A stretch of DNA of 64,000 bases from Bacteroidota bacterium (GTDB taxonomy: Bacteria; Bacteroidota; Ignavibacteria; UBA10030; UBA8401): positions 86,480 to 150,479 of the forward strand of contig JAUXTU010000036.1 in assembly GCA_030679145.1 (NCBI GenBank). Reading direction: 5' to 3'. This document shows positions 11,408 through 57,228 of this stretch, piece by piece. The notes beneath the pieces were generated by a model. That model had not been told where the DNA came from. It saw only the letters and a list, made by a program, of their open reading frames with translations, and made no database searches. The first letter of the stretch is position 1; each line of letters begins with the position of its first letter. A program made the translations under genes and the position numbers.

Positions 11408-11494
11408 TGTCATTCCGAGGAGCAGAGCGACGAGGAATCTCGTTTTTAATCTCAAGAAGAAAAACAAGATTCTTCGCTTCGCTCAGAATGACAA
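11408..11494. repeat. MITE-like element. Two copies of the GTCATTC(C/T)GAG…GAATCT motif lie in inverted orientation and flank a 26-bp core.
   Basis: tgtcattccgaggagcagagcgacgaggaatct at 11408-11440. The reverse complement of 11467-11494 is tgtcattctgagcgaagcgaagaatct. It lies inside the 5' end of track ORF 11314. Confidence 0.6.
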
Positions 11495-11511
11495 TAAAAG
11501 GTATTTTTGAG

Positions 11512-12420: not shown

Positions 12421-12498
12421 ATACAATATTAAATGAGGTATTTAAATTCTTAACAGTTGCCTTGTAGCAATATTTTATTTCTTAATCAAAAAATTTAC

Positions 12499-12640
12499 CT
12501 TGTTCCCAACGTCTCGTTGGGAGCGCAACGTAGCGAAGTTCCACTTCGTAATGAAGTATGCGAAATGGAGTTTCATATCATTCTCGTTCCCAAACACCTG
12601 CCCGACTGCGTTTGGCAGGCGGGGAGTTTGGGAACGAGAT
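12499..12640 (+). promoter_or_regulatory. Highly structured leader upstream of the pentapeptide-repeat gene. It has two hairpins that reuse the CGTTCCCAA(A)C sequence.
   Basis: 7-bp stem tcccaac/gttggga at 12502-12520. Perfect 14-bp stem tctcgttcccaaac/gtttgggaacgaga (12583-12596 paired with 12627-12640) enclosing an inner stem cctgcc/ggcagg. Alternative pairings between the four copies are possible. Confidence 0.4.
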
Positions 12641-12665
12641 ATACTTCTTCTTCTACGCTAAATCG

Positions 12666-13250
12666 ATGAAAAGCAGAACAATCAAAACCATTATTGAACA
12701 ACAAACATTTACGGGAATTGATTTTTCGAAGAATGGATTTCCGAAAGATGATTATGAGAATTGCAGTTTTCTCAACTGTAATTTGTCGAACGCAGATTTA
12801 TCGGGAATTAAATTTATTGAATGCACATTTAGAGGATGCAATCTCAGCGTGTCGAAACTGGATGGCACAACATTTAGGGATGCTCACTTCGTTGATTGCA
12901 AATTATCAGGAATGCAGTTTGGAAATTGCAATGAGATATTGTTTTCCGTTGATTTCGAGAACTGCAATCTTACCCTTGCAAGCTTTTATGCGTTGAACGT
13001 TAAAAAGACACGCTTTAAGAACTGCATACTTCACGAAGTTGATTTTACGCAGAGCGATTTGAGCGGCTCACTGTTTGATAATTGTGATTTTGCCAGAGCA
13101 AAATTTGATCGAACGAATTTGATAAAAACAGATCTTCGTAATTCCTATAATTATTCTATTGATCCTGAAGAGAATAAAGTGAAGAAGGCAAAATTTTCAG
13201 CAGTAGGAATTATCGGATTGCTAGGTAAGTACGATATTGATGTGGAATAA
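12666..13250 (+). CDS. Pentapeptide-repeat protein (Qnr/MfpA-like).
   Basis: Tandem A(D/N)LxG-type repeats throughout (NADLSGIKFIECTFRGCNLSVSKLDGTTF…). Start placed at MKSRTIK. Confidence 0.7.
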   Translation: MKSRTIKTIIEQQTFTGIDFSKNGFPKDDYENCSFLNCNLSNADLSGIKFIECTFRGCNLSVSKLDGTTFRDAHFVDCKLSGMQFGNCNEILFSVDFENCNLTLASFYALNVKKTRFKNCILHEVDFTQSDLSGSLFDNCDFARAKFDRTNLIKTDLRNSYNYSIDPEENKVKKAKFSAVGIIGLLGKYDIDVE

Positions 13251-13278
13251 AAAACAGACGTGATCGTTCTATTCAACT

Positions 13279-16200
13279 TTATTCAACTCTATTCAATTCT
13301 ATCGTAAACGTGCTTCCCATCGGCGGTGTGCTATTCACGTAAATTTTTCCACCGTGTGCATCAACGGTCTCTTTTACAATTGCAAGACCAAGTCCGGTTG
13401 CAGTCTCATCGCCTGTTGGTTTTGCAGATAAAACACGGAATTTTTTGAACAACTCATTTCGTTCACCCGCAGAAATACCGGGACCCTCGTCAGTGATCCA
13501 AAACTGTACCTTATCGTTGTGTCGGTACACACCGGCTTGAATCGCTGAATGCAGCGGGGAATATTTGATCGCATTGCTGACAAGATTTTCGATCGCATCC
13601 TGAATACGGGCGATGTCTGCCATGACCATGACAGTATCAAATTCATCAACAACAAAAGTCAATGTTTGTTCTTTTTTCTCCGCAAGAAATTTATAACTGT
13701 CGATAACCATTCCGGCAATTTCAGCAAGGTTTACTTTTTCAAATTGAAAGCTGATCGCGCCGCTTTCCATACCGGAGAGATTCAGCAGGTTATTGATCAC
13801 CTTGATCATTCCATCGGAGCTGTTTCGGATCATCTTCAAATATTTTTTTGAAACACTATCCAATGCTCCGCTTTGTTCAATCTGTTTTGTCAATCCGGTA
13901 ATGGATATCAGCGGACTTTTCACATGGTGCGTTACCATATCGAGCAGTTGAGATTTTACGGCATTGGCATTTTCCGCTTTTACTTTTTCCTGTTCGGTAA
14001 GATCAAGAAGTTGTTTGATCGTTTCTTGTTCTCCCTGCAGATCTTTTGTGCGGGTCTCAACAAGATGTTTCAATTTTTGTTCGCGGCGTTGTATTTGATG
14101 GACGCGTGCACGGTACACCCCAACCATACTTGACAGCACCAACAGGATCATGCCAACAATAAACAGATCTGTTTCATAAAAATATCCTTTTTTTACAAAT
14201 GTGATCGCTACACCGGTCGAGTCCCATACACCGTCACTATTTGCGGCAACGATACGGAATGTATATTTGCCGGGAGGCAAATGCGTATAATTTGTTGTAC
14301 GACGAGTATCAAGATCGTACCACTTCTTATCATATCCGTCAAGCATTGCTTTGAACCGAATTTTTTTCGGACTGACAAAACTCAATCCCGTAAAATGGAT
14401 TTCGATACGCTGGTTTTCCGCCGGCACAATAAATTCTTTATTGAATGATATCGGCTGATTGTCGATCAAGAACTGTTCGATCACTACTTTCGGTGATCTC
14501 TGGTTTGTAACGACCTTTTTTGGATTAACAATGGTAACGCCGCCGGCAGTTGAGAACCACAATGTTCCATCATGTACCTTCCAACCAGCGGGCTGAACGC
14601 CGCCGCTGTTTTCCATATTGATCATACCATGCTCTCTGCCATACACAGCGCATGTGATACTGTTTAATCCGGCGTAAAAGAATTTCATCACATCGAACTT
14701 ATCAACATAAAAAATGCCTTTGTTGGATGTCATCCATAATCGCCCCATATCATCTTCAAGAATGCTGAAAATAACATCATCAAATAAACCATTAACGGAT
14801 GTCAGCGTGAAGAATTTTTCACTCGTATAGCAGATCAATCCGCCGCCAAAAGTACCGATCCAGATGGAGTTATCATTGGTGACGTACATTGAACGAATGA
14901 AATTATTCGTCAATCCATTTTCGGTTGTGTACGATGTTATTCCATCATCGCCGATAACCGATATACCTGCACCGTCTGTTCCAACCCAAATATTTCCGCG
15001 GAAATCTTCGATGACACAGCTGGTGTAATTGCTTGCCAATCCTTGTGCGGTTGTGATCTGTTTGACTGTGCCGTTTTCGAATAGATAAATACCTTCTCCG
15101 GAAGAAGTAACCCACATGCGACCTTTGCTGTCGGCAAAAATATGTGAAGAGATCAATCCTTTGGTCTTTTCAACCGGCTGCACCGGTTTAACTTTACCAT
15201 TCTCAATGATATTCAATCCGCTGGCTGTTGCAACCCATATTCTGTCCGAATCGTCTTCGGCAACAGAATAGATCTCGTTATCTCGCATTCCTTCTTTTTC
15301 TGAATACCGCACAAACGTTTGCGGTGATTTGTAATTCATCTTCGCCAACCCGCTGTCAGTACCAATCCACATGTTGCGCATATAATCTTCCATGATTGTA
15401 TGTACTGCATTGGAAGGGAGTCCTTCCTTTGCGGTGTAGTTGGTAAACAATCTTTTGCGCAGAATTTCAAGTCCGCGTCCATCAGCTCCGATCCAAATAT
15501 TTTCTTCGGAATCGATGAACAGTGACATTACATGACCATATCGCTGACCGTCTTTATTTGTAAGGGATGAAATAATTCCGCGATCGATACGGGCAACACC
15601 GCTCTTTGTTCTCACCCACACAGCTTCATTTTTATCGATAAAGATCGAATAGACAATTCGGCTTGGCAAACCGTTCTTTTCCGTGAAGGTAAGGAACCGG
15701 CTCTTATCTTTGAAATCTATCAACACATTCATTAACCCGTCGTTGGTACCAATCCACATTGTACCATTTGAAGCTTCACGCAGTGAAGTAACGGTATTGT
15801 TTACCAATCCATCAGCAATAGTTAGATTATTGATCAATCCATTGTTGTAAATGGAAATTCCAACCTCTGTTCCAATCCAGACCTTCCCCTGAAGATCTTG
15901 ACTGAAACAGAGGACATCATTGGAAATCAATCCAGTAGTTTTATTAATTACCGTAAATGTCGAATCTTTCATCGTGATGACACCATGTTCACGAAGAGCT
16001 ATCCAGAGTGTTGCTTTAGTGTCTTGGAAAATTGCGCGTACGTGGCCGTGTGAAAGCTGGGGAATATGATCAATATGTGTGAAAACGCCGTTTTGATATT
16101 TTGTTAATCCGCCGTTATATGTTCCTATCCATAATATTCCATTGCGGTCTACATATAAAACGGTGATAAAATTATTGTTTATTGCAGGGGTATTTTTCTT

Positions 16201-42904: not shown

Positions 42905-45229
42905 TTATTTTTGTAACAACAATTTCTTTGTCTGCATAAAGTTATCAGATTGCATTCGATAAAAATATACACCGCTTGATAATTTTCCACCTTTGAACGG
43001 TACCGAATAAAATCCCTCCTTCTTTTCTTCATTCAATAGTGTCGCAACTTCACGACCGAGAATGTCGAATATTTTTATTGTTACCAACGATTGCTTTGGT
43101 ATTGCAAACGATATAGTTGTAGTCGGATTAAATGGATTCGGATAATTTTGATATAATTGAAATTGAGTTGGCATTTGATTAATTACAGTTTCCTCTTCTA
43201 ACGATGTAAATTGACTTATCCGGAAATCAAATAATCCATCAATAAAAGATAAGGCGTAAACAGTATCTGCAATTGCTACTAATTTATTTATGCCAATACT
43301 ATCCATTCCAGCATACGTCCAAAGTAGGCCATTATTTTTTGTAAAATATAATCCACGAGGTCGATACAATGGATCTGTTGCATCAAATACTGAAAGCCAT
43401 AAGTTGTTCTTACTATCAAACGCGTAATAGTTTTGGAAATAAATATCTGGGGTTAAAGGAAAATTCGGCAACGGTATTTCAACAAGCTGGTTTGCTGTTT
43501 TCTTAAACAGTTTCAATTTATTTTGCGCTGTAGCAAAAACATAAAGGAGACTGTCATTGTCCATTATAATATCTTGAATAAAAAATTTACTTAATCCGGA
43601 AGAATCAATTTTCCAAATACCGTCAGGGAGAGTTTTTTTGTAGATAAATAATTTTTCTCCGGGAAATTGAAATTCGTTTTTTAAGAAATATCCAGTAACA
43701 CCATCCGATAAATATCTATTTGGTTTATCATAAGAAACAGCTAATTTCAATCCCGTTGAATCAACTTTCCATCCGGTATCTTTTGTTCTGAAGTATGGCA
43801 AATGTTTTGTAAAACTAAATAAATATTGATTTCCATTATTATCAACATAGTATTTATCGTTAGTCGACAAAGTAATATTATTTGTTTTCAAACCAGCGGT
43901 GTCCAATATCCAAGTAGTTCCTTTATCAGAGGATTTCCAGATTGTTGAGGAACTCTCATTCTTACTTTTTGGTGCGACGACATAAATATTTCCCGCACCA
44001 TCATTTTGTATACTTAAATTTGAAAAATATCCATTAACAGGAAATATTTTTTTAAAAACAGTATCACCGTCCATTACTCTATATAGTCCAAGATTAGTCG
44101 ATATAAAATGATGATTTCCAGCACGAGCCAAGCTATAGAATCTATTGGGATTAAATTGAAATTCTTTTGGCATTATAGTCCACGTATCACCAAAGTCGGT
44201 GCTTTGAAAATTTCCGTATTTAGTTGCAGCATATACAAGTGAATCGCCCTGTACGTTTGAAAATAGATCAGTTGGATTCATTGAATAATCAAGCGAATTT
44301 ATTCCTTGTGAAATATCGATCCACGGTTCTGTCCCGCCGTTTGATCTATACGCACCATAGTACGTTACAGCGTAAATATTTCCATACGCATCATCTCCAT
44401 AACTATCAGCATATTTATTTTGGGGAATACTTTGAAACGTTTTCCACGTTGTCCCTTTGTCGGTTGATACATAATTGCTAAAATAATCGGAAACATAAAT
44501 CCTTCCACGGCGATCTATGAAAATAACCTCACATGAAAAAGCGGGGAAGCTTAAAACCTTATTCCAGACACTTGAATCCGGATGTTGTTTATATAATCCC
44601 TTATTGGTAGCAGTGTAAACATAATGAGAAGAATCTTCAGCAATATCATAAATAGTATTTATCCCTAATCCGGTAGAATCTAATTTCCAGGTTTGTCCAT
44701 CATCACGGCTGACATAGACAGTACTATTGCCAACGACATAAAGGGCATCTCCAATTATTTTCTTAAAATATAAATATTGCAAGGGAGAAATAATTTGCCC
44801 TGCGTATTTTTGAGTAAATGTACTCTTTAAAGGATCATAAATAATTACTGCTATCTCTCCGTTTGAAAATAGAACAAAGTAATAATTTGGAATGTTGCTT
44901 TTTTGTGTAACATCAATTATTGAAATTTCTGGAGGAGCTTCTAAACGAAACCACCCAGCAGGATGGACCGCATCGCCTTGATAGTATGGTATCATTACTA
45001 ATAATTTTTCATTAAACATTGTAAATATTTCAAGATTGTCCGCAACATTTTTTTTGAATGCTTTCGTGGACACCTCGCCTACCAAATATGCCGATGCTTC
45101 ATAATTAAAAAATGATTCTGCATTAAATTGTGAATAAGCAGAGTTGCTAAAAAAAAGGAATAAAGTTGTCATAAAGGAAACAACCTTGAACAATTTTTTT
45201 GGTATGGTGAAAATGTCTTGAGTTTTCAT
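42905..45229 (-). CDS. T9SS-secreted BNR/Asp-box repeat protein.
   Basis: Asp-box motifs (SRDDGQTW, STDKGTTW, STDFGDTW, SSDKGTTW). C-terminus FQLYQNYPNPFNPTTTISF…KKLLLQK. Confidence 0.7.
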   Translation of the reverse strand: MKTQDIFTIPKKLFKVVSFMTTLFLFFSNSAYSQFNAESFFNYEASAYLVGEVSTKAFKKNVADNLEIFTMFNEKLLVMIPYYQGDAVHPAGWFRLEAPPEISIIDVTQKSNIPNYYFVLFSNGEIAVIIYDPLKSTFTQKYAGQIISPLQYLYFKKIIGDALYVVGNSTVYVSRDDGQTWKLDSTGLGINTIYDIAEDSSHYVYTATNKGLYKQHPDSSVWNKVLSFPAFSCEVIFIDRRGRIYVSDYFSNYVSTDKGTTWKTFQSIPQNKYADSYGDDAYGNIYAVTYYGAYRSNGGTEPWIDISQGINSLDYSMNPTDLFSNVQGDSLVYAATKYGNFQSTDFGDTWTIMPKEFQFNPNRFYSLARAGNHHFISTNLGLYRVMDGDTVFKKIFPVNGYFSNLSIQNDGAGNIYVVAPKSKNESSSTIWKSSDKGTTWILDTAGLKTNNITLSTNDKYYVDNNGNQYLFSFTKHLPYFRTKDTGWKVDSTGLKLAVSYDKPNRYLSDGVTGYFLKNEFQFPGEKLFIYKKTLPDGIWKIDSSGLSKFFIQDIIMDNDSLLYVFATAQNKLKLFKKTANQLVEIPLPNFPLTPDIYFQNYYAFDSKNNLWLSVFDATDPLYRPRGLYFTKNNGLLWTYAGMDSIGINKLVAIADTVYALSFIDGLFDFRISQFTSLEEETVINQMPTQFQLYQNYPNPFNPTTTISFAIPKQSLVTIKIFDILGREVATLLNEEKKEGFYSVPFKGGKLSSGVYFYRMQSDNFMQTKKLLLQK

Positions 45230-45240
45230 AACGAACCTTC

Positions 45241-47574
45241 CTATTTTAGCAATAATAATTTTCTTGATGCACTGTAATTTCCAGTTTTCAACGAATAAAT
45301 ATATACCCCTGTTGAAAGTTTCGATGCATCGAATTGAACCGAATGTAATCCTGCATTTCGCTCTTCATTAATAAGCACTGCAACTTCCCGCCCGAGAATG
45401 TCGTGCACTTTCAATGATGTGAAACCTGAAGTCTGAAGCATGAACCGTATCGTCGTTGTCGGATTGAACGGATTTGGATAATTCTGAAACAACTCGTACG
45501 AATCTGCAATCTGCGGTTTGGTATTCTCAACCGAAGTTGGTTCTGAGGCCGTTGTGAATCGATAAACACCATCGATGAATGTTACCGCATAGACACCTGG
45601 TAACGAAGATGATCCGGAACTTTTCATGAATGAAGTGGATGAATCATCAACCGCATTCAGGAATTTGATGCCGACGCCGTTCAATCCAACATATTTCCAC
45701 GTTGTACCATTATCTGTAGTAAAGTGAACTCCTTTGTTAGAGCCACCCGCGAAGAACACCGCCCAAATAACTCCATTTTTATCTATCGTTAAAGGATACG
45801 GCGAAGGTGAAGATCCAATTGTTGTAGGAAGCGGTGTCTCAGCCCAGGTGCTTCCGTTGTATCGCCAGATTTTTTCGGGACTAGAAAAAGCTTTTACCAT
45901 AATATTTCCATCTTGATCGCTCGATAATATACCATCACCGGCGGCAAGGATGCTGGTATTGACAATCTTCCAGGCGGAATCATTTATTGTCTTGCTATAG
46001 ATGAACAACTTAAGACTTCCTGAAAACACCACCCTGCTTACATAAATAATTCCTTTCTTGTTATTCAAGGTGACGGCTTTTATATATTGATTTGCTTGCA
46101 TGCCCAATCCCGCAGTGTCGAGCTTCCACGCTTGTCCCGGTTTTTTAGTTAAGAATCTGGCGTTACCACCTAAATATTGTGTGCCCTGTCTGTCTACCCA
46201 AAAATCATACGTCTGCGTTCCGGCAGTGATCCCTAGTGCTTTTTGTCCGGCTGTATCCGGGATCCAGGTATCGCCGTGATCGGTCGATTTAACGGTGTAA
46301 AAGAGCCAAGAGGAAGGACCAGTCTTTATAGGAAGATTCCCATAAACATTTCCAACGGAGTCGGATGTTATGACATTTATTCCCCAGACAAACCCCTGTT
46401 TTGGAAATACTTTTTCCGATATCGTATCTCCTACGGCAACCCGATAAATACCAAGGTTTGTTGAGATGAAATAATAATTTCCACCCTTTACAACACCGGT
46501 ATAAAAATTATGTGCCCGCGATTGTGAACTGATAGGTGAGTGTACCCAGTTCGTTCCAAAATTTGTGCTTTGAAACATTCCATATTTTGTAGAAGCAAAA
46601 AGCACGCTGTCGCCGCTTATGGTATTGATAATTTTTTCGCTTGAAGGAAGATACTTCTGTGCGTTGAGCGAATCGCTGATAGATTCCCACGGGGGAGTAA
46701 GATTTGAAAGCCGGTATGCGCCAGAACTTGTTCCCACCGCGTAAATATTTCCAAACGCGTCATCTCCAAACGAAGCGATTCCTTCAACAACACCTGAAGA
46801 AATATTTGTAAACGTAACACCGCCGTCGGTTGACATTACTACTCTTCCTTGAGCGACTGATGCTGTAGTGTAGATGAACATTCGTCCTTTTCGATCAACA
46901 AAAATTTTACGAGGGAATCCTGTTGTTTTAAATGAGGTATCCTTACGCCAAATATTTGAATCTGGATGTTGGTAATACAAATTACGGCTTTCCGTTACTA
47001 CCCAGCCGTAATGATTTGTATCAACCGCAATATCATTCACAGATTCGCTGCCAATATTTGTTGTATCGAGCAACCAAGTTTTTGCCGTGTCCCAACTTGC
47101 ATAGACCTTTCCCGATCCAAGCGCATACACTGCATCCCCGATAATTTTATTAAAAATTGGAAACCCAATTACGGTAATGGGTATTGTTGCACCAACTTCC
47201 CAATGGCTGCCAAGTTGAGTCTGAATATATTTAAGCACTGTTACCATACCATTAGAAAATAATACAAAAGCAATATCAGGATTATCTGACTTAAAATTAG
47301 CCGACACAATTTTTTTTTCAAAGGGAGCCTTTACGACTACTCCACTACCACCGTCATCGCCGCCAAAGAGTCTCGTCGTTATTGATGCTACTCCACATTC
47401 TTTTTCAGTATAATAAAGGTGATGTATATTTTCATATGCGCCCCTATCAATCCGTCGGCTAATGTCTGCAAGCACAGTTTCACCAAATATGGTAACTCTA
47501 CTTTGCGAATACATCCGTGTAGGAATCATACATAAAATCATTACAAACAATAGTGTAGAAAAAAACTTTGACAT
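45241..47574 (-). CDS. T9SS-secreted BNR/Asp-box repeat protein, tandem paralog of the gene at 42905-45229.
   Basis: Collinear similarity to the upstream paralog (…QHPDSNIWRK… against …QHPDSSVWNK…; …STKYGMFQSTNFGTNW… against …ATKYGNFQSTDFGDTW…). Start set at MSKFF (signal peptide) with a GGAGG Shine-Dalgarno. Confidence 0.7.
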   Translation of the reverse strand: MSKFFSTLLFVMILCMIPTRMYSQSRVTIFGETVLADISRRIDRGAYENIHHLYYTEKECGVASITTRLFGGDDGGSGVVVKAPFEKKIVSANFKSDNPDIAFVLFSNGMVTVLKYIQTQLGSHWEVGATIPITVIGFPIFNKIIGDAVYALGSGKVYASWDTAKTWLLDTTNIGSESVNDIAVDTNHYGWVVTESRNLYYQHPDSNIWRKDTSFKTTGFPRKIFVDRKGRMFIYTTASVAQGRVVMSTDGGVTFTNISSGVVEGIASFGDDAFGNIYAVGTSSGAYRLSNLTPPWESISDSLNAQKYLPSSEKIINTISGDSVLFASTKYGMFQSTNFGTNWVHSPISSQSRAHNFYTGVVKGGNYYFISTNLGIYRVAVGDTISEKVFPKQGFVWGINVITSDSVGNVYGNLPIKTGPSSWLFYTVKSTDHGDTWIPDTAGQKALGITAGTQTYDFWVDRQGTQYLGGNARFLTKKPGQAWKLDTAGLGMQANQYIKAVTLNNKKGIIYVSRVVFSGSLKLFIYSKTINDSAWKIVNTSILAAGDGILSSDQDGNIMVKAFSSPEKIWRYNGSTWAETPLPTTIGSSPSPYPLTIDKNGVIWAVFFAGGSNKGVHFTTDNGTTWKYVGLNGVGIKFLNAVDDSSTSFMKSSGSSSLPGVYAVTFIDGVYRFTTASEPTSVENTKPQIADSYELFQNYPNPFNPTTTIRFMLQTSGFTSLKVHDILGREVAVLINEERNAGLHSVQFDASKLSTGVYIYSLKTGNYSASRKLLLLK

Positions 47575-47623: not shown

Positions 47624-50600
47624 TTACTTCATTAACAATAGTTTCTTCGAAGCAACAAAATTTCCTGTCCGCAAAGCATAAATATAAACTCCTGTTGAAA
47701 AACTTGATCCATCAAATCGAATCGAATGTAATCCTGCTTTTCGTTCTTCGTTGATCAATGTTGCTACTTCACGACCAAGCATATCATACACACGCAAGGT
47801 CACCCAGCTTGTTACCGGAAGACCAAACTTGATTGTGGTGGAAGGATTGAAAGGATTTGGATAGTTTTGTTGCAGCAAGTATGTTTCCGGAATCTCATTC
47901 GTTTCGCTGCCAACAGCCAATACGTTTGGAACAAGTGCTGTGTCAACTGCATGGTTGTTTAACAGATCGAAATCAAAAGTTAATGCACTTGCATACGCTT
48001 TGTTAAGAATAGAGCCAATTGAATCAACCTTAGCAACCAATACTACATTTACTTTTTCTCCCGGTTCCATCAAGCCGACCGTAACGGTGAGAATACCATC
48101 AGCAAACAGAATGCTTCCCTTTGAAGAAGAATCTGCAATAAATGTAAGATGCTTGGACAATGTATCTTTTAATGTAACTTGTTTTGCAGAGTCCGGACCA
48201 TTATTCTGAAGCGTAATAAGATAAACAAGAGTATCTGTTTTTTTCAGTGTATCCGCATTTGCTTTAACTGTTACTGCTATGTCCGCAACTACATTAGAGA
48301 CTTTTACTTCAATACATTTCGAAAATTCAGATGTGTTACCATTGTTATCTGTAGCTGTTGCGGAAATAAATGTTCCGGAAGCGACCGGAATGATGAGTGC
48401 TTCATTGATGGAAGCAAATCCAGTCGAATCTGTACCAATTGTCGTTGAAATGAGAAATTTCTTTCCCTCACCATATTTTGTTGAATCAGAAACACCCGCG
48501 TCAAAGAATTCCAGTGTGTATGTCTCATTCGGCTTACCGAACATCATACCCAGGACGCGGAACGGAAAGGGCCCATCGGCAAAAGTAATTACCGGAAAAT
48601 TTTGCAGATCATTTGCACCGGCATCCGAATCAGTTTCATCGTTCGGAGTGACCCCAAAAAAACCGGAATAGAGATCGATGCCAAGTTCTCCATTATCGTA
48701 AATAGAGTTTGCTGATATTCTGTTTTGATTGCTGTCCCCTACGATCACTCCACTATATTTATTGGATGTGATGATATTTTCAGCACCGGCTTTTCCTATA
48801 GTTGTCCGGTTTGCACCGGAATAAATTTGAATACCATCCTCTTCATTCCCAAATTTTTTGGTGAGGGTATAATCAGTTCCAATCCCATTATTGTATATTT
48901 TATTTCCCGTTGAGGAATTTGCTAAAATAATACCGGCGAGTTTGTTGCCGGAAATTGTATTTCCACCTCCTGCTTGGTCACCGCCAATAATATTGTAATC
49001 AGAACTGTCCACTGCAACCCCATTATCGCCATTGGCAATAATTTTCGTCTGCAAAATATCCAAGCCGATAACGTTTCCGTACACCGAATTGCTATCGGAA
49101 CCGTAAAGATATATACCACCATATAAATTGCCCGACACTAGATTATATGCCCAATCTTCAACCCCTCCTATTGTATTTCTATTCGAATATGAAATTAGAA
49201 TTCCTCTATAGTTGGGAATTGCTTTATCCCCGAAGCCATCGGTACCAATGGTATTTCCCCGAATCAAATTTCCTCTTGACATATCTCCGAAAACGTAAAC
49301 ACCATTACCGATATTTCCCGATATAATGTTGCCTGAATCACTGCCTGCGCCCCCAATACGTGTATTTCGAGCATTATTAATGAATACTCCATTATCGGTA
49401 TTTGGAAGTTTGAGCGAATTAGTAATATCCAATCCAATGGTGTTGGCAATAATAACATTTCCGTTAGGTGTCAGGTTGGAATTGGTTTCAACAGTAACCC
49501 CATTACGACCGTTACCGGAAATGAAGTTTCGTTGGATGACATTATTGGATGCCGATTGATCGATCAATACACCGTCGGTAGTATTAGGAAGTGAATAATA
49601 TCCGGTCCAATCTGTTCCGATAAGATTATATTTGATCGTATTTCCTGAAGATGGACCCGAAATCAATATGCCTTGTCCGATGTTGCCGGAGATAAGATTT
49701 TTATCAATGAATGCTGAACCACCAAAAATATTATCTGAACCGGCAAGAATATAAATTCCTCTGTCATTATTTGATAATGATTGCGACCCAAAGATATTTG
49801 TTCCGATGAAATTGTTTGAAAAAACATTTCGAGTTGGTCCGGCGCCAAACGGCTGTAAGAAAATTCCATAATGTTGATTTCCGGAAAGAAGATTCTTGCG
49901 GACAAAATTACTATCAACATTTCCTTGCATTGAAATACCGGAATGATTGGGAATACGTGTCATTCCGGTCTTGTTTGTCCCGATATAATTATTCTCAATG
50001 ACATTCCCTTGTACATAATTCGGCTTTGAACCTCCCGGAAAAAAGATCGTAAATCCGCCGAACATTTCAATGCCGTAATTCCCGTTTCCGGAAATAATAT
50101 TTCCATCGTTTTGATCTGGACCGCCAATAACATTATTATCGCACAATATATTTATTCCGGAACCGCTGTTTCCCCAATCAAGAGTTCCGGTCGGATCGAC
50201 CCCGATATAATTTCTTTTAACCACAACACCGCCGTTGCCGGTAATGTGAATTCCGGAACCAGTATTGCAGCTGACGGTATTATATTCGATCACGACCTGT
50301 GTTCCAAGGATCTGCATCCCGCCGAATCTGTTTCCGAACAAACTATCAAGTGTTACATTTGAGCCGATCAAGTTGGTTCCGATGTACGCTTGAGAGGATT
50401 GACCTAACACGGTAATGCCGTATCCATTCCCGCTGATATAATTGTCGATGATAGAATCGTTATCAGCAAACGTGGAGATACCGTCATACATATTCGGCAG
50501 TTTTCCTATTCCTAAATTATCCAACCCGATGTAATTTCCCTGAACCAGTGTTTTTTTGGAAAATTCTCCGATCTCTAAACCGCTGTCGTTATTTCCGGAG

Positions 50601-51460
50601 ATAAGATTCTTTAATACTTTGTTCCGTTCACCGAGCACATATATTCCGGAATACGTATTTGGCGATGCTGTAAATCCGTCTTTCGTGCCGCAAAAATTAT
50701 CGATGATGGAATTATCATTTGCAAAGACAATATCAATTCCATCCTGCGTATTACCATGAGCAAAATTTCTAACATCCGGTAAATCGCCGCCAATAAGTGT
50801 TCCGGCGGCATTGACATTTAATCCAATCTTGTTAAGTGTAAATTCATTTCGCTGAATGGTTGAATTGACTGCCCCGCTGGCAAGACCAAGTCCAACGCTC
50901 TTCCACGATTTAAAGATCATGTTTTTTACAACGGAGGTGCCTGCAAGAGTAAGACCGTAGGTTCCGGTTGAAGCAGAGCCGTCCAATATTACTTTTCCTG
51001 CTGCAACAGTACCGTCAATATTCAACGTGACAGTAACTGTCGGAAGCTGCGTAGCCGGAGTAATGACCGATATCCCCGAAGCAAATGCAATGGCATGCGA
51101 ACCGCCTAATTTATTTGCATTCTGAATTGCCGAGCGCAATGTTGCAGGAGAATACACTCCATCATCAATATCAAAATCTGCGTCGTCTCCCGCATTCGAC
51201 ACAACAAATGTTACCATTGCGCTTGACATCTTTGTAATGCTTGACTTCATTTGTGATTGAGATACAGATGATTGCAAAAACTCATCGCGCACACTTTTCG
51301 GCAGTTCATTGAAAGAACGATATTGACCGTCCGCTGAACGAGTGATGTGTGAATAACCATCAACCTGAATAATTGTAAATTTCTGAGGTGATTTAATCTC
51401 AGGTTGTGCAGCAAGCATTGAAATGAATAAAGTGACGGCAACAAAGAAATGAATACACAT
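47624..51460 (-). CDS. Giant T9SS-secreted protein, about 1280 aa, with parallel beta-helix (PbH1) repeats and a DUF11/CARDB-like domain.
   Basis: Dozens of N-x-(I/L)-x-G-N-xx-G(I/V) repeats. DUF11-like segment …DIAVTVKANADTLKKTDTLVYLITLQNNGPDSAKQVTL…. C-terminus LLQQNYPNPFNPSTTIKF…KKLLLMK. Start set at MCIHFF (signal peptide). Confidence 0.7.
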   Translation of the reverse strand: MCIHFFVAVTLFISMLAAQPEIKSPQKFTIIQVDGYSHITRSADGQYRSFNELPKSVRDEFLQSSVSQSQMKSSITKMSSAMVTFVVSNAGDDADFDIDDGVYSPATLRSAIQNANKLGGSHAIAFASGISVITPATQLPTVTVTLNIDGTVAAGKVILDGSASTGTYGLTLAGTSVVKNMIFKSWKSVGLGLASGAVNSTIQRNEFTLNKIGLNVNAAGTLIGGDLPDVRNFAHGNTQDGIDIVFANDNSIIDNFCGTKDGFTASPNTYSGIYVLGERNKVLKNLISGNNDSGLEIGEFSKKTLVQGNYIGLDNLGIGKLPNMYDGISTFADNDSIIDNYISGNGYGITVLGQSSQAYIGTNLIGSNVTLDSLFGNRFGGMQILGTQVVIEYNTVSCNTGSGIHITGNGGVVVKRNYIGVDPTGTLDWGNSGSGINILCDNNVIGGPDQNDGNIISGNGNYGIEMFGGFTIFFPGGSKPNYVQGNVIENNYIGTNKTGMTRIPNHSGISMQGNVDSNFVRKNLLSGNQHYGIFLQPFGAGPTRNVFSNNFIGTNIFGSQSLSNNDRGIYILAGSDNIFGGSAFIDKNLISGNIGQGILISGPSSGNTIKYNLIGTDWTGYYSLPNTTDGVLIDQSASNNVIQRNFISGNGRNGVTVETNSNLTPNGNVIIANTIGLDITNSLKLPNTDNGVFINNARNTRIGGAGSDSGNIISGNIGNGVYVFGDMSRGNLIRGNTIGTDGFGDKAIPNYRGILISYSNRNTIGGVEDWAYNLVSGNLYGGIYLYGSDSNSVYGNVIGLDILQTKIIANGDNGVAVDSSDYNIIGGDQAGGGNTISGNKLAGIILANSSTGNKIYNNGIGTDYTLTKKFGNEEDGIQIYSGANRTTIGKAGAENIITSNKYSGVIVGDSNQNRISANSIYDNGELGIDLYSGFFGVTPNDETDSDAGANDLQNFPVITFADGPFPFRVLGMMFGKPNETYTLEFFDAGVSDSTKYGEGKKFLISTTIGTDSTGFASINEALIIPVASGTFISATATDNNGNTSEFSKCIEVKVSNVVADIAVTVKANADTLKKTDTLVYLITLQNNGPDSAKQVTLKDTLSKHLTFIADSSSKGSILFADGILTVTVGLMEPGEKVNVVLVAKVDSIGSILNKAYASALTFDFDLLNNHAVDTALVPNVLAVGSETNEIPETYLLQQNYPNPFNPSTTIKFGLPVTSWVTLRVYDMLGREVATLINEERKAGLHSIRFDGSSFSTGVYIYALRTGNFVASKKLLLMK

Positions 51461-51655
51461 ACCCACCTCAGAATAATTGAGAAATGATTGTAATTTTGTC
51501 CTGTTATTATATAGTTCTCTTAACAATGAAAAACTTTCAGTCAATTCTGTCTGATTTACAATATGTAAACCAGGTCACTTGTTGTCAAATGCAAAATTTT
51601 TGCAAACTTGCCAATGGTGTGGAAAATCGCTTAATTTCTAATAAAACAGACCATT

Positions 51656-54600
51656 ATGGTACAATCAAATTTCCATACATTTTCTAGGACGAAAACTTCA
51701 GCATTAGTATTGATGCTTTGTACAATATTACTTTATAGCAAAACTCATAGCTATCAACTTTACAATACTCAAGCTGATTCTTCCGCTGCCCACTCTTTCT
51801 TTGTTCACGCAATAGACTTTCAAAAGAGAGCACAATACGACAGTGCTATAGTGTTCTTTGATACGGCGGGAACGATCTATGCTACACTAAACAAGATCGA
51901 TGATCAGGTTCGCTGCATTACCAAGAAAGCAGAATGTCTGCAATCCAAAGGAAATTATGCCAAGGCGATTGCTTCTCTGCAAATTGATAAAGCAACAGAG
52001 CAAAAATTATTGAAAGAAGCACCTTTGATAGCAGCGCAACGCTTGATGATGTTTGGATCATTGTATAGGGAGCAAGGGAAATATGATACCGCACTTGTTG
52101 TTGCACACAATGCATTAGATATCCTACAAAACAATCCTTCTTTAAGTGTTGATCTGGAGTGGGATATGTACACTCTCTTTGCCGGGATATTTTTTAGCGT
52201 TGGAGAGTACGACAGCTCACTTGCGTACAATCATCGTGCTTTGAAACTCTTTCCCGCAGCGCAGGGAGAACAGCAATTAAAAATAAGCGCTTCTTACAAC
52301 GGCATAGCGGGCACTTATGAAACACGCGGAGATTATCAAAAAGCACTCGACTATTTTTCCCGATCGCTTGAAATACGCAAACTCGTACTTGGCGAAAAGC
52401 ATCCTGATATTGCAAATCTGTATAACAATGTGGCTGCGATTTATTTTCGTTCCGGAGATTATGACCTTGCATTGGAATATTATTTGAAGTCACTTTCAAT
52501 TATGAATGAAACGTTACCGATCGATCATCCGTCGTTTGGGATTAGATATAATAATATCGCAATGGCGTACCGAGGCAAAAAAGAATTTGATAAAGCACTC
52601 GAATTCGGATCACAATCCAAATTCATTTTTGTAAAGAAACTTGGCGATAAACATCCAAACGTTGCAGGTGTTGTTAACAATATTGGGCGCACGTATTCCG
52701 ATATGAAACAATACGACCGAGCACTTGAATCATATCAACAGGCGCTTTCAATTTGGAAAGAGAAATTTGGAGAAAAACATGTGAATGTAACACAGAGCTT
52801 CTTCAACATCGGCGAAGCGTATGGTAACTTGAAAGAATATGAAAAAGCAAAAATGTGGCTCGAGAAATCTTTGCTTATTCGCCGTGAAATGCTTGGTGAA
52901 AATAATGTGAAAGTTGCGCAATCATATAATGCGCTGGGATCTGTATATACAGATTGGAATAAGCTAGATTCTGCTCTTCAGTTTTATCAAAAAGCGATTT
53001 ATACGCTTGTCGAAAGTCCGAAAGACTCAAATTTATATGATATCCCCATAACGATTAAAAGCATATCAGACTTTGATCTATTGGTATCATTATCCGGAAA
53101 AGCAAAAGTACTGTTCATGCAAGGAATCATACAGAAAAATATTTCAGATCTACGAACATCATTGAATACATATGAACACGCTCTAGAACTTGTCGACAAC
53201 ATTCGTCGGGGATTTGGTACTGAAGGATCGAAAATGCAACTTAGTCAAATGTCGTTTGATATATATGAGCAGACAATTTCTGTTGCCTTAAAACTTTTTG
53301 AATTCACAAAAGATGACTTATATACTTCCAAGGCGTTTTCAGTCGCAGAGCGAAGCAAGGCAAATATACTTCTGGATGCAGTTTCCGAATTGAACGCAAA
53401 ACAATTTGCAGGCATTCCTGATAGTCTGCTTGAACAAGAATCGGCATTGAAGATCGATCTAACATTCAAAGAAACTCAGCTTCAGAAAGAAAAAGATAAA
53501 AAAGAGAAGGCAAGCAAAACAAAAAGTGAGCAATTGGAGAATACACTATTCGATCTAAAACGTCAGTATGAGCGCTTGATCGTTAAATTTGAGAAAGAAT
53601 ATCCTGATTATTATTCACTCAAACATCAATCGGAAAATGTTTCAGTCCGCGATATTCAAGAACATTTACCTGACAATAAAACAGCAATATTAGAATACGT
53701 TGTTGGTGACAGTACGGTAACGATCTTTTTGGTGACGAAAAACAGATGTATTGTCAAATCACAGCGCAGCACTTCTTTAACATCGTTGGTCAAGCAATTC
53801 CGCCGTTCAATTCAGAACGTAGAATCTGAGGAATATGTAAATCTTTCATATAGACTATATACTCAACTGCTTGCACCCGTCCAAACCAGTCTCAAAGGAA
53901 TTCAAAAATTATATATCATTCCCGATGGCATACTGAATTATCTTCCATTTGAAGCATTGATAACAAAGAGCCATTCTAAAACGGCACCGGTAAATTTTGC
54001 TGCTATTCCGTATCTGATCAAGCAATATGAGATAAGCTATCAAGTATCCGCCCGATTTTTTCATGACGAGCAAAGAAAAAAACAAATCGATGAAAATTAC
54101 TCCTTTATAGGCATGGCACCGGTATTTTCAGATAGACCTTCTCATTCAAAAAATATCTATACAACTTCTGTAGATCGAATTACACGATCGAGGACAGTTG
54201 ATGGTGAACAATTTGTTGAATTGAAAGAATCTGAGAATGAAGTAAAAATTATTTTCAATTTGTTTAACGTTCGGAAAAAATCAGCCAAAGTTTTTCTACA
54301 CAACGAAGCAAAAGAATCCAATCTTAAATCAAACGATATTCAACAATATCGCTTCATCCATATTGCAACACATGGAATTATCAACGAAGAGAAGCCCAAC
54401 CTTTCAGGTATTATCTTCTCTGCTCCCGAAAATAATTCATCGGAAGACGGCGTTCTTTATTCCGGCGAAATTTACAACCTTCGGCTCAATGCTGATCTTG
54501 TTGTTCTGAGTGCGTGTGAAACAGGTCTCGGAACAATAGTCAAAGGAGAGGGAATTTTAGGATTCACAAGAGGCTTTATGTATTCCGGAGCTCAAAATCT

Positions 54601-54784
54601 TTTAGTTTCGCTTTGGCAGGTGGCCGATAAATCAACAGCAGAGTTGATGGTACAGTTTTATCAAAATATTTTCAAAAAACAATCGTATCCAACTGCTCTA
54701 CGAAATGCAAAACTTGAGATGATTAAACAGGGGAAATATGCTCATCCCGTAGAGTGGAGTCCGTTTGTGTTGACAGGAAAGTAA
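51656..54784 (+). CDS. Secreted TPR-repeat protein with a C-terminal CHAT (caspase-like) protease domain.
   Basis: Signal peptide. At least 8 TPR units (…YNNVAAIYFRSGDYDLALEYYLKSL…). CHAT His/Cys dyad context FIHIATHG…ADLVVLSACETG. Confidence 0.75.
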   Translation: MVQSNFHTFSRTKTSALVLMLCTILLYSKTHSYQLYNTQADSSAAHSFFVHAIDFQKRAQYDSAIVFFDTAGTIYATLNKIDDQVRCITKKAECLQSKGNYAKAIASLQIDKATEQKLLKEAPLIAAQRLMMFGSLYREQGKYDTALVVAHNALDILQNNPSLSVDLEWDMYTLFAGIFFSVGEYDSSLAYNHRALKLFPAAQGEQQLKISASYNGIAGTYETRGDYQKALDYFSRSLEIRKLVLGEKHPDIANLYNNVAAIYFRSGDYDLALEYYLKSLSIMNETLPIDHPSFGIRYNNIAMAYRGKKEFDKALEFGSQSKFIFVKKLGDKHPNVAGVVNNIGRTYSDMKQYDRALESYQQALSIWKEKFGEKHVNVTQSFFNIGEAYGNLKEYEKAKMWLEKSLLIRREMLGENNVKVAQSYNALGSVYTDWNKLDSALQFYQKAIYTLVESPKDSNLYDIPITIKSISDFDLLVSLSGKAKVLFMQGIIQKNISDLRTSLNTYEHALELVDNIRRGFGTEGSKMQLSQMSFDIYEQTISVALKLFEFTKDDLYTSKAFSVAERSKANILLDAVSELNAKQFAGIPDSLLEQESALKIDLTFKETQLQKEKDKKEKASKTKSEQLENTLFDLKRQYERLIVKFEKEYPDYYSLKHQSENVSVRDIQEHLPDNKTAILEYVVGDSTVTIFLVTKNRCIVKSQRSTSLTSLVKQFRRSIQNVESEEYVNLSYRLYTQLLAPVQTSLKGIQKLYIIPDGILNYLPFEALITKSHSKTAPVNFAAIPYLIKQYEISYQVSARFFHDEQRKKQIDENYSFIGMAPVFSDRPSHSKNIYTTSVDRITRSRTVDGEQFVELKESENEVKIIFNLFNVRKKSAKVFLHNEAKESNLKSNDIQQYRFIHIATHGIINEEKPNLSGIIFSAPENNSSEDGVLYSGEIYNLRLNADLVVLSACETGLGTIVKGEGILGFTRGFMYSGAQNLLVSLWQVADKSTAELMVQFYQNIFKKQSYPTALRNAKLEMIKQGKYAHPVEWSPFVLTGK

Positions 54785-54790
54785 AACTGA

Positions 54791-55498
54791 TCATCGAATC
54801 ACAACGAACTTTCCAACCTGCACAAGTTTTTCATTCGCCTCTAACTTCAGATAGTAGAGTCCAGGTTCAAGTCTATCTTTCAAGATAATTTCTGCTGAAG
54901 GAACTGTTTTCTTCCATTTCTCTACATTCTTGTTGTCAACAATTGTCAACGTATATTTTTCTTCTTTTTGTCCTTCCCATTTGATCGTAAACGGTGTTGT
55001 GATTGTATCTCCGATTGTTGGAGCTAGCAGAGTTACATTTGAAGAAGAACGGACCGTTCTTTCAATAAAATTTTCCAAAGCCTGATTTGGAATAAATTTT
55101 GTAGTGTCCAGTTCTATTACTGCAAGAGGCTTTTCAAAAAGAATCTCTCGTGAGGCAGTCTTTTTTTGCTGAAAATCTTGAAGAACAAAAATGATTGCAG
55201 ATCCAACGGCGACGATCAATATTGCCGCAATTGCATAACGGAAAATATTTGGAGAGAAGCCAAAAATTTTCCCTTGTTGTTCTCTGGTTCCCGCAAACTC
55301 AAAATCATCCACTTCTTGCATGCGCGCCGAACATGCGGGACACACAGCAAGGTGAGCTTTGAAGAATGTTATTTCTTTTTGACTCAATTCATCGGCAAAA
55401 TTGCGATAGACTGAAAAAGAAGCGTAACTTAAATGCTTCCCTGAGTCATCAAGAAATTTTGAATAATCGATCAAGAAATTCGATTCATTATTTGTCAT
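54791..55498 (-). CDS. Membrane anti-sigma factor with an N-terminal ZAS (H-x3-C-x2-C) zinc motif and an extracytoplasmic C-terminal domain.
   Basis: HLAVCPAC motif. Single transmembrane helix YAIAAILIVAVGSAIIFVL. Lies immediately downstream of the ECF sigma gene. Confidence 0.65.
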   Translation of the reverse strand: MTNNESNFLIDYSKFLDDSGKHLSYASFSVYRNFADELSQKEITFFKAHLAVCPACSARMQEVDDFEFAGTREQQGKIFGFSPNIFRYAIAAILIVAVGSAIIFVLQDFQQKKTASREILFEKPLAVIELDTTKFIPNQALENFIERTVRSSSNVTLLAPTIGDTITTPFTIKWEGQKEEKYTLTIVDNKNVEKWKKTVPSAEIILKDRLEPGLYYLKLEANEKLVQVGKFVVIR

Positions 55499-55589
55499 CG
55501 TCTATCTCTGTTCATATAAACTGCATCTGTATACATAGTTCATAAATTCGATAAAAACTTTCGGAACATATTTGTTTATTCTTTAAAGA

Positions 55590-56177
55590 CTAACTGAATC
55601 GACTCAATCCTTTATGGATATACCCAAGACGATTGAGATAATCAGCTAATTTCATTCGTAACCGTCTGATATTCGTATCGAGCGTATTTAAATTTATTCC
55701 TAAGATTTTTGCGATTTCAGATCGTTCTGTCTCATCGATAAGGAAATTCAATAAACGGATATCATTCTCTTTCAAATGATTTTTGAAAAGATTGATCTGC
55801 ACCAATAATTCCGATCCTTCAATTTCCTGCAGCTGTTCGTTATGCGCAGTAAATAATTGCTGGTCCAGATTCTTTTCATTGTTACCACCTTCTTGATTTC
55901 CTTCATTCTTCACAACAATCGCCTTCTGCTTTATCGCTTTATCGAGTAAAGACCAGCATTGAAGTTTGATTGCCCGCAATATATAATGTTCTAGATTTCG
56001 AACGTTATCAAAGTTTGATTTTGAAAGAGAAAGGAAGACCTCATGTAAAACATCATTAATATCAATTAGGCTTGTAGTTACAAGCACATCGGAGTATCGT
56101 GCATAGAATTTTCGGATGATAGCATATCCCGCAGTTCCTTCTTGCAAATATTCTGTATGTAAGGTTTGGCTATTCAA
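55590..56177 (-). CDS. ECF-type sigma-70 factor.
   Basis: Sigma-70 region 2-like N-terminus. Region 4 HTH …RSEIAKILGINLNTLDTNIRRLRMKL…. Confidence 0.7.
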   Translation of the reverse strand: MNSQTLHTEYLQEGTAGYAIIRKFYARYSDVLVTTSLIDINDVLHEVFLSLSKSNFDNVRNLEHYILRAIKLQCWSLLDKAIKQKAIVVKNEGNQEGGNNEKNLDQQLFTAHNEQLQEIEGSELLVQINLFKNHLKENDIRLLNFLIDETERSEIAKILGINLNTLDTNIRRLRMKLADYLNRLGYIHKGLSRFS

Positions 56178-56330
56178 GGAAAATCTAAATCCTCGCGAAT
56201 TAAAATTAATGTTAATGACATCGGTAAAGAAAGATAGAGACTTTGTCTCGTTTAGGCAAGGGTATTAGATTAACAGGGAGTCAATAAACTATAATGTAAA
56301 AAACTGAAACTATTGAAAAGTAATTCAATC

Positions 56331-56865: not shown

Positions 56866-57228
56866 TTATCTTCGACTTTTGGCGGTCAATATAGAACGTT
56901 TAAGAAGTCTTATTATTTCTTCTGCTTCAGAATAAATAGAAGAAAATTCAATTTCAGAGAGATAAGAAGTTTCTTTCAGTAGTTCAAGCCAATATAATGT
57001 TTCGTCTATTTCTTTTTGACTTATCGATAGTTTGTGAATGAAATCTGCCTTTGATTCTGCGCTATTTGCTTCTCTTACATTTGCCCCCACTGATGTTCCG
57101 GAGCGAAGTAATTGTTTGCTCAGAGTAAATTCTTTTTTCTGTTCTGTAAGGTATTTATAGAGATTTATAATCCTAACGGCAAAGGAAAATGTTTTAGATC
57201 TTAAAATATTTTCTTTTTTATTTTCCAT
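56866..57228 (-). CDS. Four-helix-bundle protein of the 23S rRNA intervening-sequence family.
   Basis: …LRSGTSVGANVREANSAESKADFIHKLSISQKEIDETLYWLELL…, characteristic of PF05635-type proteins. Confidence 0.7.
   Translation of the reverse strand: MENKKENILRSKTFSFAVRIINLYKYLTEQKKEFTLSKQLLRSGTSVGANVREANSAESKADFIHKLSISQKEIDETLYWLELLKETSYLSEIEFSSIYSEAEEIIRLLKRSILTAKSRR

Follow-up and report, generated by a model that had tools for sequence, protein, structure and literature searches.

In M. xanthus, the anti-sigma factor DdvA carries a zinc-binding anti-sigma (ZAS) domain, a transmembrane helix and a periplasmic tetratricopeptide repeat (TPR)-CHAT region within one chain, in which the TPR-CHAT part blocks the protease RseP and has its catalytic dyad turned towards the partner protomer's flexible linker (PMC11506125). 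This fused form is reported to be rare, being found only in some Myxococcota and one Comamonas (PMC11506125). In Craspase, the TPR-CHAT protein Csx29 cleaves Csx30 and thereby relieves inhibition of a sigma factor of the extracytoplasmic function (ECF) type (PMC10028731), and the conserved context of ECF54 in Actinobacteria includes genes for a CHAT protein, a subtilase and a carboxypeptidase (PMC8999054, PMC7826278). Here we describe a locus of a Bacteroidota bacterium of the class Ignavibacteria (assembly GCA_030679145.1), located within a 64,000-nt stretch of contig JAUXTU010000036.1 (positions 86,480 to 150,479, hereafter the window). In this locus a predicted Sec-exported TPR-CHAT caspase-like protease is encoded tail to tail with a single-pass ZAS anti-sigma factor and its neighbouring ECF-type sigma factor, and divergently from genes for cargo of the type IX secretion system (T9SS). 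The module is a split, two-gene, T9SS-linked variant of the TPR-CHAT/anti-sigma/ECF kind known from the DdvA system. From comparative sequence analysis it appears to be a conserved sigma/anti-sigma/exported TPR-CHAT switch of Ignavibacteria/Bacteroidota-like bacteria that controls a T9SS surface-protein operon. An earlier note on this DNA, made from its letters alone, knew of no description of such an arrangement; DdvA, which fuses a ZAS anti-sigma to a periplasmic TPR-CHAT (PMC11506125), contradicts this, and both the cleavage of Csx30 by Csx29 (PMC10028731) and the CHAT protein in the ECF54 context (PMC8999054) are further precedents. Missing from that note were the divergent T9SS cargo operon, the promoter motif shared between it and the anti-sigma gene, and the resemblance of the anti-sigma periplasmic domain to a T9SS C-terminal domain (CTD). 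New here are the bipartite promoter motif, the CTD-like anti-sigma domain and an enrichment of ECF and anti-sigma genes near distant TPR-CHAT genes.

The module shares with DdvS/DdvA an ECF-type sigma factor, an N-terminal HxxxCxxC domain, one transmembrane helix and a periplasmic TPR-CHAT with a His/Cys dyad (PMC11506125, PMC6061681). The logic proposed for DdvA, a CHAT site-1 cut followed by RseP, may also be shared, and the model of the window TPR-CHAT matches the DdvA structures 8rw5 and 8rot at E ~1e-11. Unlike DdvA, the TPR-CHAT is here a separate, convergently encoded protein with predicted Sec export, and the anti-sigma carries a small CTD-like beta-sandwich. No significant sequence similarity connects the module to DdvA or DdvS in any of the three proteins, as detailed for each below. 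The output of DdvA is CBASS (cyclic oligonucleotide-based anti-phage signalling system) and CRISPR, whereas the predicted output of the module is T9SS cargo, and the hosts differ likewise, Myxococcota for DdvA and a bacterium of the Fibrobacterota-Chlorobiota-Bacteroidota (FCB) group here. Type III-E Craspase (Cas7-11, Csx29, Csx30 and CASP-sigma/RpoE) also pairs a TPR-CHAT protease with a sigma inhibitor, cleavage being only proposed in our case, and Csx29 (8eey_B) superposes on the window TPR-CHAT model with a TM-score of 0.51 when normalised to target length. However, Craspase is cytoplasmic, RNA-guided and encoded in a CRISPR locus with a soluble Csx30, whereas the module has a signal peptide, a membrane anti-sigma and no cas genes; around it lie genes for T9SS cargo, a cupin gene, pta and the like, and it shows no association with Cas7-11, Csx30 or a CRISPR array. 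The module further resembles the regulated intramembrane proteolysis systems DegS/RseA/RseP of E. coli and PrsW/RsiW/RasP of B. subtilis in having a single-pass anti-sigma for which a periplasmic or extracytoplasmic site-1 trigger is proposed. In those systems site-1 is cut by the serine protease DegS or the metalloprotease PrsW, whereas the candidate here is a clan CD CHAT protease with a TPR sensor, encoded beside its presumed substrate. ECF54 shares with the module a CHAT-domain protein conserved beside an ECF sigma factor and proposed proteolytic control, but has no recognisable anti-sigma and belongs to another phylum.

The TPR-CHAT gene (51656..54784, plus strand) encodes a 1042-residue protein whose assignment draws on domain matches, alignment, a signal peptide and an AlphaFold model. 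A signal peptide (residues 1 to ~32) is followed by a TPR superhelix (residues ~43-451), a helical middle region (residues ~472-670) and the CHAT domain (residues 733-1041). Pfam TPR_12 matches in six stretches (2.6e-76) and CHAT PF12770 covers residues 733-1041 at 3.4e-67, with 227.3 bits against a cut-off of 24. The model has a mean predicted local distance difference test score (pLDDT) of 82.8, with ~22 TPR-type helices across residues 43-451 and an alpha/beta CHAT domain. Its best fold matches in the PDB are separase, DdvA (8rw5/8rot) and Csx29 (8eey_B), about equally good at E ~1e-11 to 1e-13. A sequence search of the PDB with the CHAT half gave no match at E<=10 and one with the full-length protein found TPR proteins only, so kinship to DdvA, Csx29 and separase is seen at the level of fold alone. 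The dyad residues His906 in HIATHG (codon 54371-54373) and Cys954 in LSACETG (codon 54515-54517, both plus strand) are invariant in an alignment of 30 homologues reaching down to 33% identity, which argues for retained catalysis. The N-termini of ~27 of these 30 homologues have a basic stretch, a hydrophobic core of 10-14 residues and a small-residue cleavage site, often between AxA and Q, and the window protein aligns with these signal peptides and has a likely cleavage site between THS and YQ. Sec export is therefore predicted for the family. As the window protein has no T9SS sorting domain beyond its CHAT domain, the periplasm is its expected location. In one related locus (L094) the CHAT gene is split into two open reading frames (ORFs; 11446-12795 and 12942-14660, minus strand) while it is intact in the otherwise matching L093 and L096; the split gene is either a pseudogene or an assembly or frameshift error.

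All three ORFs of the trio lie where the earlier note had placed them, the TPR-CHAT gene on the plus strand and the anti-sigma and sigma genes on the minus strand. In the common layout, one or more T9SS cargo genes diverge from the CHAT gene, which converges upon the anti-sigma gene with the sigma gene upstream of it. This layout is shared by contigs with CHAT homologues 85%, 58%, 56%, 44%, 43% and 42% identical to the window protein, and is kept in the window, L001, L004, L005/6, L089, L091, L092, L093/96, L095 and L097, so that at least nine distinct metagenomic lineages hold sigma, anti-sigma and convergent CHAT genes. Sequence comparison confirmed that the neighbours of CHAT in these loci belong to the expected families. 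The outer flanks of these loci differ, comprising cupin/pta, DLH/aldehyde dehydrogenase, Omp85/GcvP, Yip1, PALP or histidine kinase genes. As the trio is kept at CHAT identities from 85% down to 42% while the outer flanks change, chance would not account for the linkage. A metagenome scan starting from the sigma factor gave eight loci, and in five of the five that reach past the anti-sigma gene the latter is followed by a convergent CHAT gene. Two further contigs end at the sigma gene, and L087 holds sigma and anti-sigma genes with no CHAT reading frame recognised in its last 520 nt. Nine pairs of CHAT and anti-sigma homologues also come from contigs of equal size. A CHAT relative at 37% identity has no sigma/anti-sigma pair, and relatives at or below 37% often lack one, which places the boundary of the orthogroup near 40% identity. 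A scan of genome contigs with the CHAT alignment gave only distant relatives (26-40% identity), none with this sigma/anti-sigma family; below, these loci provide a control for the promoter motif and the sample in which linkage was surveyed at greater evolutionary distance. The earlier note had described an exported TPR-CHAT protein of 1042 residues with a HIATHG/LSACETG dyad and had called for a check of its neighbourhood. The dyad and the signal peptide hold across the homologues as given above, and the linkage was recovered both from the CHAT side and from the sigma side. None of the outcomes it had named as fatal, namely absent linkage, a dyad not conserved or a cytoplasmic CHAT protein, came true, given the export signal, the conserved dyad and the two-way linkage.

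The stop codons of the convergent TPR-CHAT and anti-sigma genes are 6 nt apart (54785-54790), with no terminator-like hairpin seen between them. Most orthologous loci have 6-13 nt here, but L093 has 47 nt and L097 has 199 nt. The 3' ends of the CHAT transcript and of the sigma/anti-sigma transcript must overlap, making antisense interference possible.

The anti-sigma gene (54791..55498, minus strand) encodes a single-pass ZAS protein of 235 residues, as judged from profile matches, alignments and a structure model. A cytoplasmic anti-sigma domain (residues ~20-72) is followed by a transmembrane helix (residues ~83-113), a disordered, variable linker (residues 114-131), a conserved segment FxPNQxLENFIERTVRS (residues 135-151) and a C-terminal T9SS CTD-like beta-sandwich (residues 156-233). 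In the model, helices at residues 25-72 and the transmembrane helix at ~83-113 precede disorder at 114-131 and a confident beta-sandwich at 156-233; the linker between the transmembrane helix and the conserved periplasmic part varies in length among homologues and has low model confidence. The ZAS ligands His49, Cys53 and Cys56 of the HxxxCxxC motif (55331-55354, minus strand) are invariant in an alignment of 28 anti-sigma sequences. Pfam zf-HC2 scores 21.2 bits on the window protein, just below its cut-off of 22.2, and the NCBIfam 'anti-sigma factor' model NF052375 matches 22 of the 28 family members, the best at 2.5e-6 and all below cut-off. The family profile gave 13 weak matches in the PDB at E<=10, none significant, with RsiW first (E=0.089) and RslA, the N-terminus of DdvA (E=0.72) and ChrR among the others. 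The family is small, with 30 proteins of 159-352 residues in a collection of 5.8 billion, none of which is fused to a TPR-CHAT. The linker and the FxPNQxLENFIERTVRS segment stand out as candidate sites for cleavage and docking. Orthologous anti-sigmas of 316-343 residues in L005 (9089-10120, minus strand) and L097 (9095-10045, minus strand) contain an insertion of ~85 residues between the anti-sigma domain and the transmembrane helix.

The resemblance of the periplasmic beta-sandwich to a T9SS C-terminal sorting domain is weak but consistent, and we consider it probable though unproven. TIGR04183, the T9SS type A CTD model, matches residues 175-233 of the window anti-sigma at 0.0023 (17.9 bits against a cut-off of 23) and 19 of the 28 family members, the best at 1.9e-4 and all below cut-off. 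Comparison by hhalign of the anti-sigma C-termini with 14 cargo CTDs of these loci gives P=0.0027 with a probability of 11%, and a hidden Markov model (HMM) of the cargo CTDs matches the anti-sigma C-termini, the best at 2.6e-6. The reverse search of the cargo with an HMM of the anti-sigma C-terminus found no cargo, and Foldseek with this domain returned generic immunoglobulin (Ig)/fibronectin type III (FN3)-like sandwich matches only. When aligned by eye, the anti-sigma ends ...YTLTIVDNKNVE...LEPGLYYLKLEANEKLVQVGKFVVIR in register to the last residue with cargo ends ...VTLRVYDMLGREV...FSTGVYIYALRTGNFVASKKLLLMK.

The sigma gene (55590..56177, minus strand, TTG start) encodes 195 residues that belong clearly, by their NCBIfam and family-profile matches, to a divergent, ECF-like branch of the sigma-70 family. 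TIGR02937 matches residues 18-181 at 3.8e-9 (36.4 bits against a cut-off of 42.9) and Pfam gives only a weak Sigma70_r4_2 match. Against the PDB, the family profile finds sigma-H (3mzy) at 1.1e-8 and SigW weakly, with no DdvS match. Ten homologues are 40-85% identical, and each is encoded beside an anti-sigma.

Intergenic alignments across the loci revealed a bipartite motif, (T/G)GAAAGTTTT-N11-12-(G/A)AACTAT, with fixed spacing. The pattern GAAAGTTTT-N10-14-AACTAT has exactly two matches in the window and none in 100 shuffles of it, and both copies take the form GAAAGTTTT-N12-AACTAT. One copy, GAAAGTTTTTATCGAATTTATGAACTAT (55535..55562, minus strand), stands 36 nt ahead of the anti-sigma start codon (ATG), in the spacer between the sigma and anti-sigma genes, and recurs in L004, L005, L087, L088, L089, L091, L093, L095, L096 and L097, with variants of 1-2 mismatches in L001 and L092. 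The other, GAAAGTTTTTCATTGTTAAGAGAACTAT (51511..51538, minus strand), lies 50 nt upstream of the likely start of the cargo operon (ATG 51460) and recurs in L001, L004, L005, L089, L093, L096 and L097; L005 has a third copy ahead of its second cargo gene. The motif is absent from the 80 unrelated loci. Its -35-like GAAAG, T-run and -10-like element 16-17 nt further on form a layout that we take to fit an ECF-type promoter. The two copies define a likely regulon comprising the anti-sigma gene and the T9SS cargo operon, and we infer that this sigma would read GAAAGTTTT-N12-AACTAT. Sigma and anti-sigma had been described in the earlier note as co-transcribed; read-through across the 91-nt gap is possible, but the conserved ECF-type motif within this gap predicts a promoter for the anti-sigma gene of its own.

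No copy of the bipartite motif lies upstream of either the sigma or the CHAT gene. Autoregulation of the sigma gene from this motif was rejected, as every locus has the motif on the downstream side of the sigma stop codon. Another promoter-like element, TTGCC-N18-TATCTTTC (56229..56259, minus strand), precedes the sigma gene and is conserved in the window, L001, L087, L088, L089 and L092, with looser versions in L004 and L090. The CHAT gene is preceded by TTGCCAATGGTGTGGAAAATCGCTTAATTT (TTGCCAATGG...CTTAATTT; 51608..51637, plus strand), conserved in the window, L001, L004 and L089. Both elements resemble the Bacteroidota housekeeping promoter (-33 TTTG / -7 TAnnTTTG), but reading them as such is tentative because TTGCC-N17-20-TANNTTTC has four matches in the window of which one is relevant. 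A generic sigma-70 promoter and terminator scan of the window gave the same counts as shuffled sequence and was not used.

The cargo genes on the minus strand encode a beta-helix/NosD/DUF11 protein (gene 1, 47624..51460), a BNR/Sortilin-like propeller (gene 2, 45241..47574) and a paralogue of the latter (gene 3, 42905..45229), each with a Por_Secre_tail CTD. They are the predicted output of the regulon, and with gaps of only 4 nt between genes 1 and 2 and 11 nt between genes 2 and 3, the last on this strand, they probably form one operon. The longest ORFs start further upstream, at TTG 51544 for gene 1 and ATG 47619 for gene 2, and these starts are probably artefacts. ATG 51460 is preceded by a GAGGTG Shine-Dalgarno sequence, and both it and ATG 47574 are preferred because they give normal signal peptides; TTG 51544 is doubtful also because the conserved promoter motif would then fall within the coding sequence. 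A divergent T9SS cargo gene is kept in all loci, its type varying between beta-helix and propeller while the trio is constant. A further T9SS-CTD protein (6578-8725, plus strand), 36 kb away, matches the BNR-like cargo at 7e-31 (phmmer); a pattern scan of the window found no bipartite motif ahead of its gene.

A pairing of TPR-CHAT with ECF sigma factors extends beyond this orthogroup. We surveyed 80 species-representative loci with distant TPR-CHAT proteins (26-40% identity) from Bacteroidota, Acidobacteriota, Cyanobacteria and Clostridia. An ECF-type sigma gene lies within 3 kb of the TPR-CHAT gene in 19 of the 80, a density of 5.0 per 100 kb. The flanks 3-9 kb away contain 0.9 per 100 kb, which makes a 5.6-fold enrichment near TPR-CHAT (binomial p=1e-4). 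The sigma assignment of these neighbours is supported by NCBIfam ECF-sigma-family matches for ten of ten, four above the TIGR02937 cut-off, and by Sigma70_r2 matches in Pfam for three of five. Single-pass membrane proteins adjoin the distant ECF genes, with HxxxCxxC in L074 and L075 and a YLLGELSEEE-type N-terminus in others. In five loci from Acidobacteriota and Clostridia (L046, L052, L068, L078 and L082), TPR-CHAT, ECF sigma and single-pass membrane protein genes follow one another on one strand, the membrane proteins having 307-392 residues, a conserved (R)YLLGELSEEE... start and no HxxxCxxC. The split arrangement seems commoner than the fused DdvA form, since the latter is reported to be rare while the split form recurs in several phyla. 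Earlier literature on a split TPR-CHAT/ECF linkage yielded only the CHAT context of ECF54 (PMC8999054, PMC7826278). The survey suggests that exported TPR-CHAT proteins with ECF/anti-sigma genes form a recurrent, essentially undescribed signalling arrangement of several phyla.

The explanation that best accounts for these observations, and to which we give an even chance of being right, is a conserved envelope-signalling module in which CHAT clips the anti-sigma, the sigma factor is freed and T9SS cargo is made. At rest, sigma would be produced from its housekeeping-like promoter, and the ZAS anti-sigma would keep it at the inner membrane. TPR-CHAT would be produced from its own housekeeping-like promoter, so that both proteins would be made constitutively, and exported to the periplasm, where it would meet the anti-sigma periplasmic part composed of flexible linker, FxPNQxLENFIERTVRS segment and T9SS-CTD-like beta-sandwich. 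A signal sensed via the TPR region would then trigger the site-1 cut of this part by His906/Cys954, after which intramembrane and cytoplasmic proteases would complete the release of sigma. Free sigma would transcribe from the GAAAGTTTT-N12-AACTAT promoters, one driving the divergent operon that encodes beta-helix and propeller surface proteins secreted through T9SS, and the other driving the anti-sigma gene as negative feedback. A physical and functional interaction between CHAT and anti-sigma is indicated by a Rosetta-stone argument, as the parts of DdvA are here split over two genes that are always adjacent and whose products both face the periplasm. Gene content, export signal, conserved dyad, a strictly kept gene order and the motif at its two positions are observed directly; cleavage of the anti-sigma by CHAT is what we infer beyond them. 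That CHAT acts as the site-1 protease, as the earlier note had proposed, is strengthened by the comparative evidence and is plausible but unproven, and it is less novel than that note took it to be.

Several points weigh against this explanation. The loop after Cys954 (residues 955-966) and an insert at residues 826-851 are modelled with low confidence, so that the active-site geometry of the CHAT domain cannot be judged. The anti-sigma orthologue in L005 has lost its His/Cys zinc ligands, which shows that the module can do without zinc or redox sensing. Assignment of the motif to this sigma is based solely on co-occurrence. For DdvA itself, CHAT self-cleavage as the site-1 step is proposed but unproven (PMC11506125). 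Finally, synteny shows partnership and not catalysis on the anti-sigma. This last point lends itself to a reading, possible but markedly less probable than the site-1 model, in which TPR-CHAT belongs to the switch without cutting the anti-sigma: it may be a sensor or co-anti-sigma, or it may cleave some other periplasmic protein to yield the real signal, a different protease then cutting the anti-sigma. TPR arrays are binding modules, and the bulk of the DdvA TPR-CHAT also blocks RseP sterically. The invariance of His906 and Cys954 over 30 homologues argues for retained catalysis, however, and the loci share no second protease gene within the module.

The proximity of the cargo genes allows a further, unlikely reading, that CHAT processes the neighbouring T9SS cargo by maturation, CTD removal or periplasmic quality control, and lies near the sigma pair only through shared products. 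CHAT is divergent from the cargo operon in every locus and, like the T9SS CTD peptidase PorU (family C25), is a clan CD protease. Yet the CHAT gene has no regulon motif, and the tail-to-tail junction with the anti-sigma gene is constant while the cargo genes change. Acidobacteriota and Clostridia, which are not known to have a T9SS, also contain distant TPR-CHAT genes paired with ECF/anti-sigma genes.

Both characterised TPR-CHAT/sigma systems are linked to defence, and the sigma matches the NCBIfam type III-E sigma model weakly (1.3e-4; 22 bits, where the cut-off is 100), so the trio might sense infection and turn on defence genes as an anti-phage regulator of the DdvA/Craspase kind. We consider this very improbable. 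The weak sigma match is common to unrelated ECF factors, the CHAT protein is predicted to be exported, unlike Csx29, and the genes that bear the motif are T9SS cargo. PADLOC gave a generic TPR match only and no CRISPR, CBASS or other defence protein occurs in the module; a role as a defence system was rejected on these grounds, and the defence link hinted at in the earlier note finds no support. A chance or historical neighbourhood of CHAT and sigma/anti-sigma genes is strongly disfavoured and scarcely credible: these phyla abound in TPR-CHAT proteins (811 matches in the homologue search, more than 600 in genome contigs) and relatives at or below 37% identity often lack the pair, but the linkage is present in every orthologous locus, in both search directions, with different flanks and at CHAT identities down to 42%, and ECF genes are enriched near distant TPR-CHAT genes too.

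Within the site-1 model, the CTD-like domain invites a speculative extension, which we regard as rather improbable. The anti-sigma may be a mimic of T9SS cargo whose decoy CTD is clipped by CHAT, so that sigma activity would be set by the periplasmic level of cargo CTDs or by the availability of T9SS. Real T9SS CTDs are removed by the C25 peptidase PorU. If true, this would represent a new sensing principle, in which secretion load is fed back via a protease and a decoy sorting signal, and would offer the first genetically separable proof of a CHAT protein as site-1 protease of an ECF anti-sigma.

The interest of the module lies partly in its architecture. No anti-sigma with a periplasmic TPR-CHAT other than DdvA has been studied, and a test of the site-1 cut proposed for it is hampered by the union of protease and substrate in a single chain. 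In the present module the two are separate genes that can be expressed, mutated and mixed independently, and the module supplies a predicted reporter promoter and a defined output operon. It also connects ECF signalling with the cargo of type IX secretion, and a sensor domain resembling a CTD may be the link. If the wider pattern holds, split TPR-CHAT/ECF/anti-sigma systems would be a widespread signalling class in Bacteroidota, Acidobacteriota and Clostridia, and such recurrence would assign a role to a portion of the very large, mostly uncharacterised bacterial CHAT family.

Two minor observations concern the surroundings of the module. L005 and L006, both from metagenome sample ERZ25039549, carry the same block on contigs of 254,920 and 12,000 bp with a gene order that differs beyond sigma, representing either a duplicated module or strain or assembly variants. 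In the window, a 120-residue '23S rRNA-intervening sequence protein' gene (PF05635, 3.7e-28; 56866-57228, minus strand) lies between cupin_5 and pta. In the closest relative, L001, whose CHAT is 85% identical, cupin_5 and pta adjoin directly, which marks this gene as a recent insertion or deletion difference.

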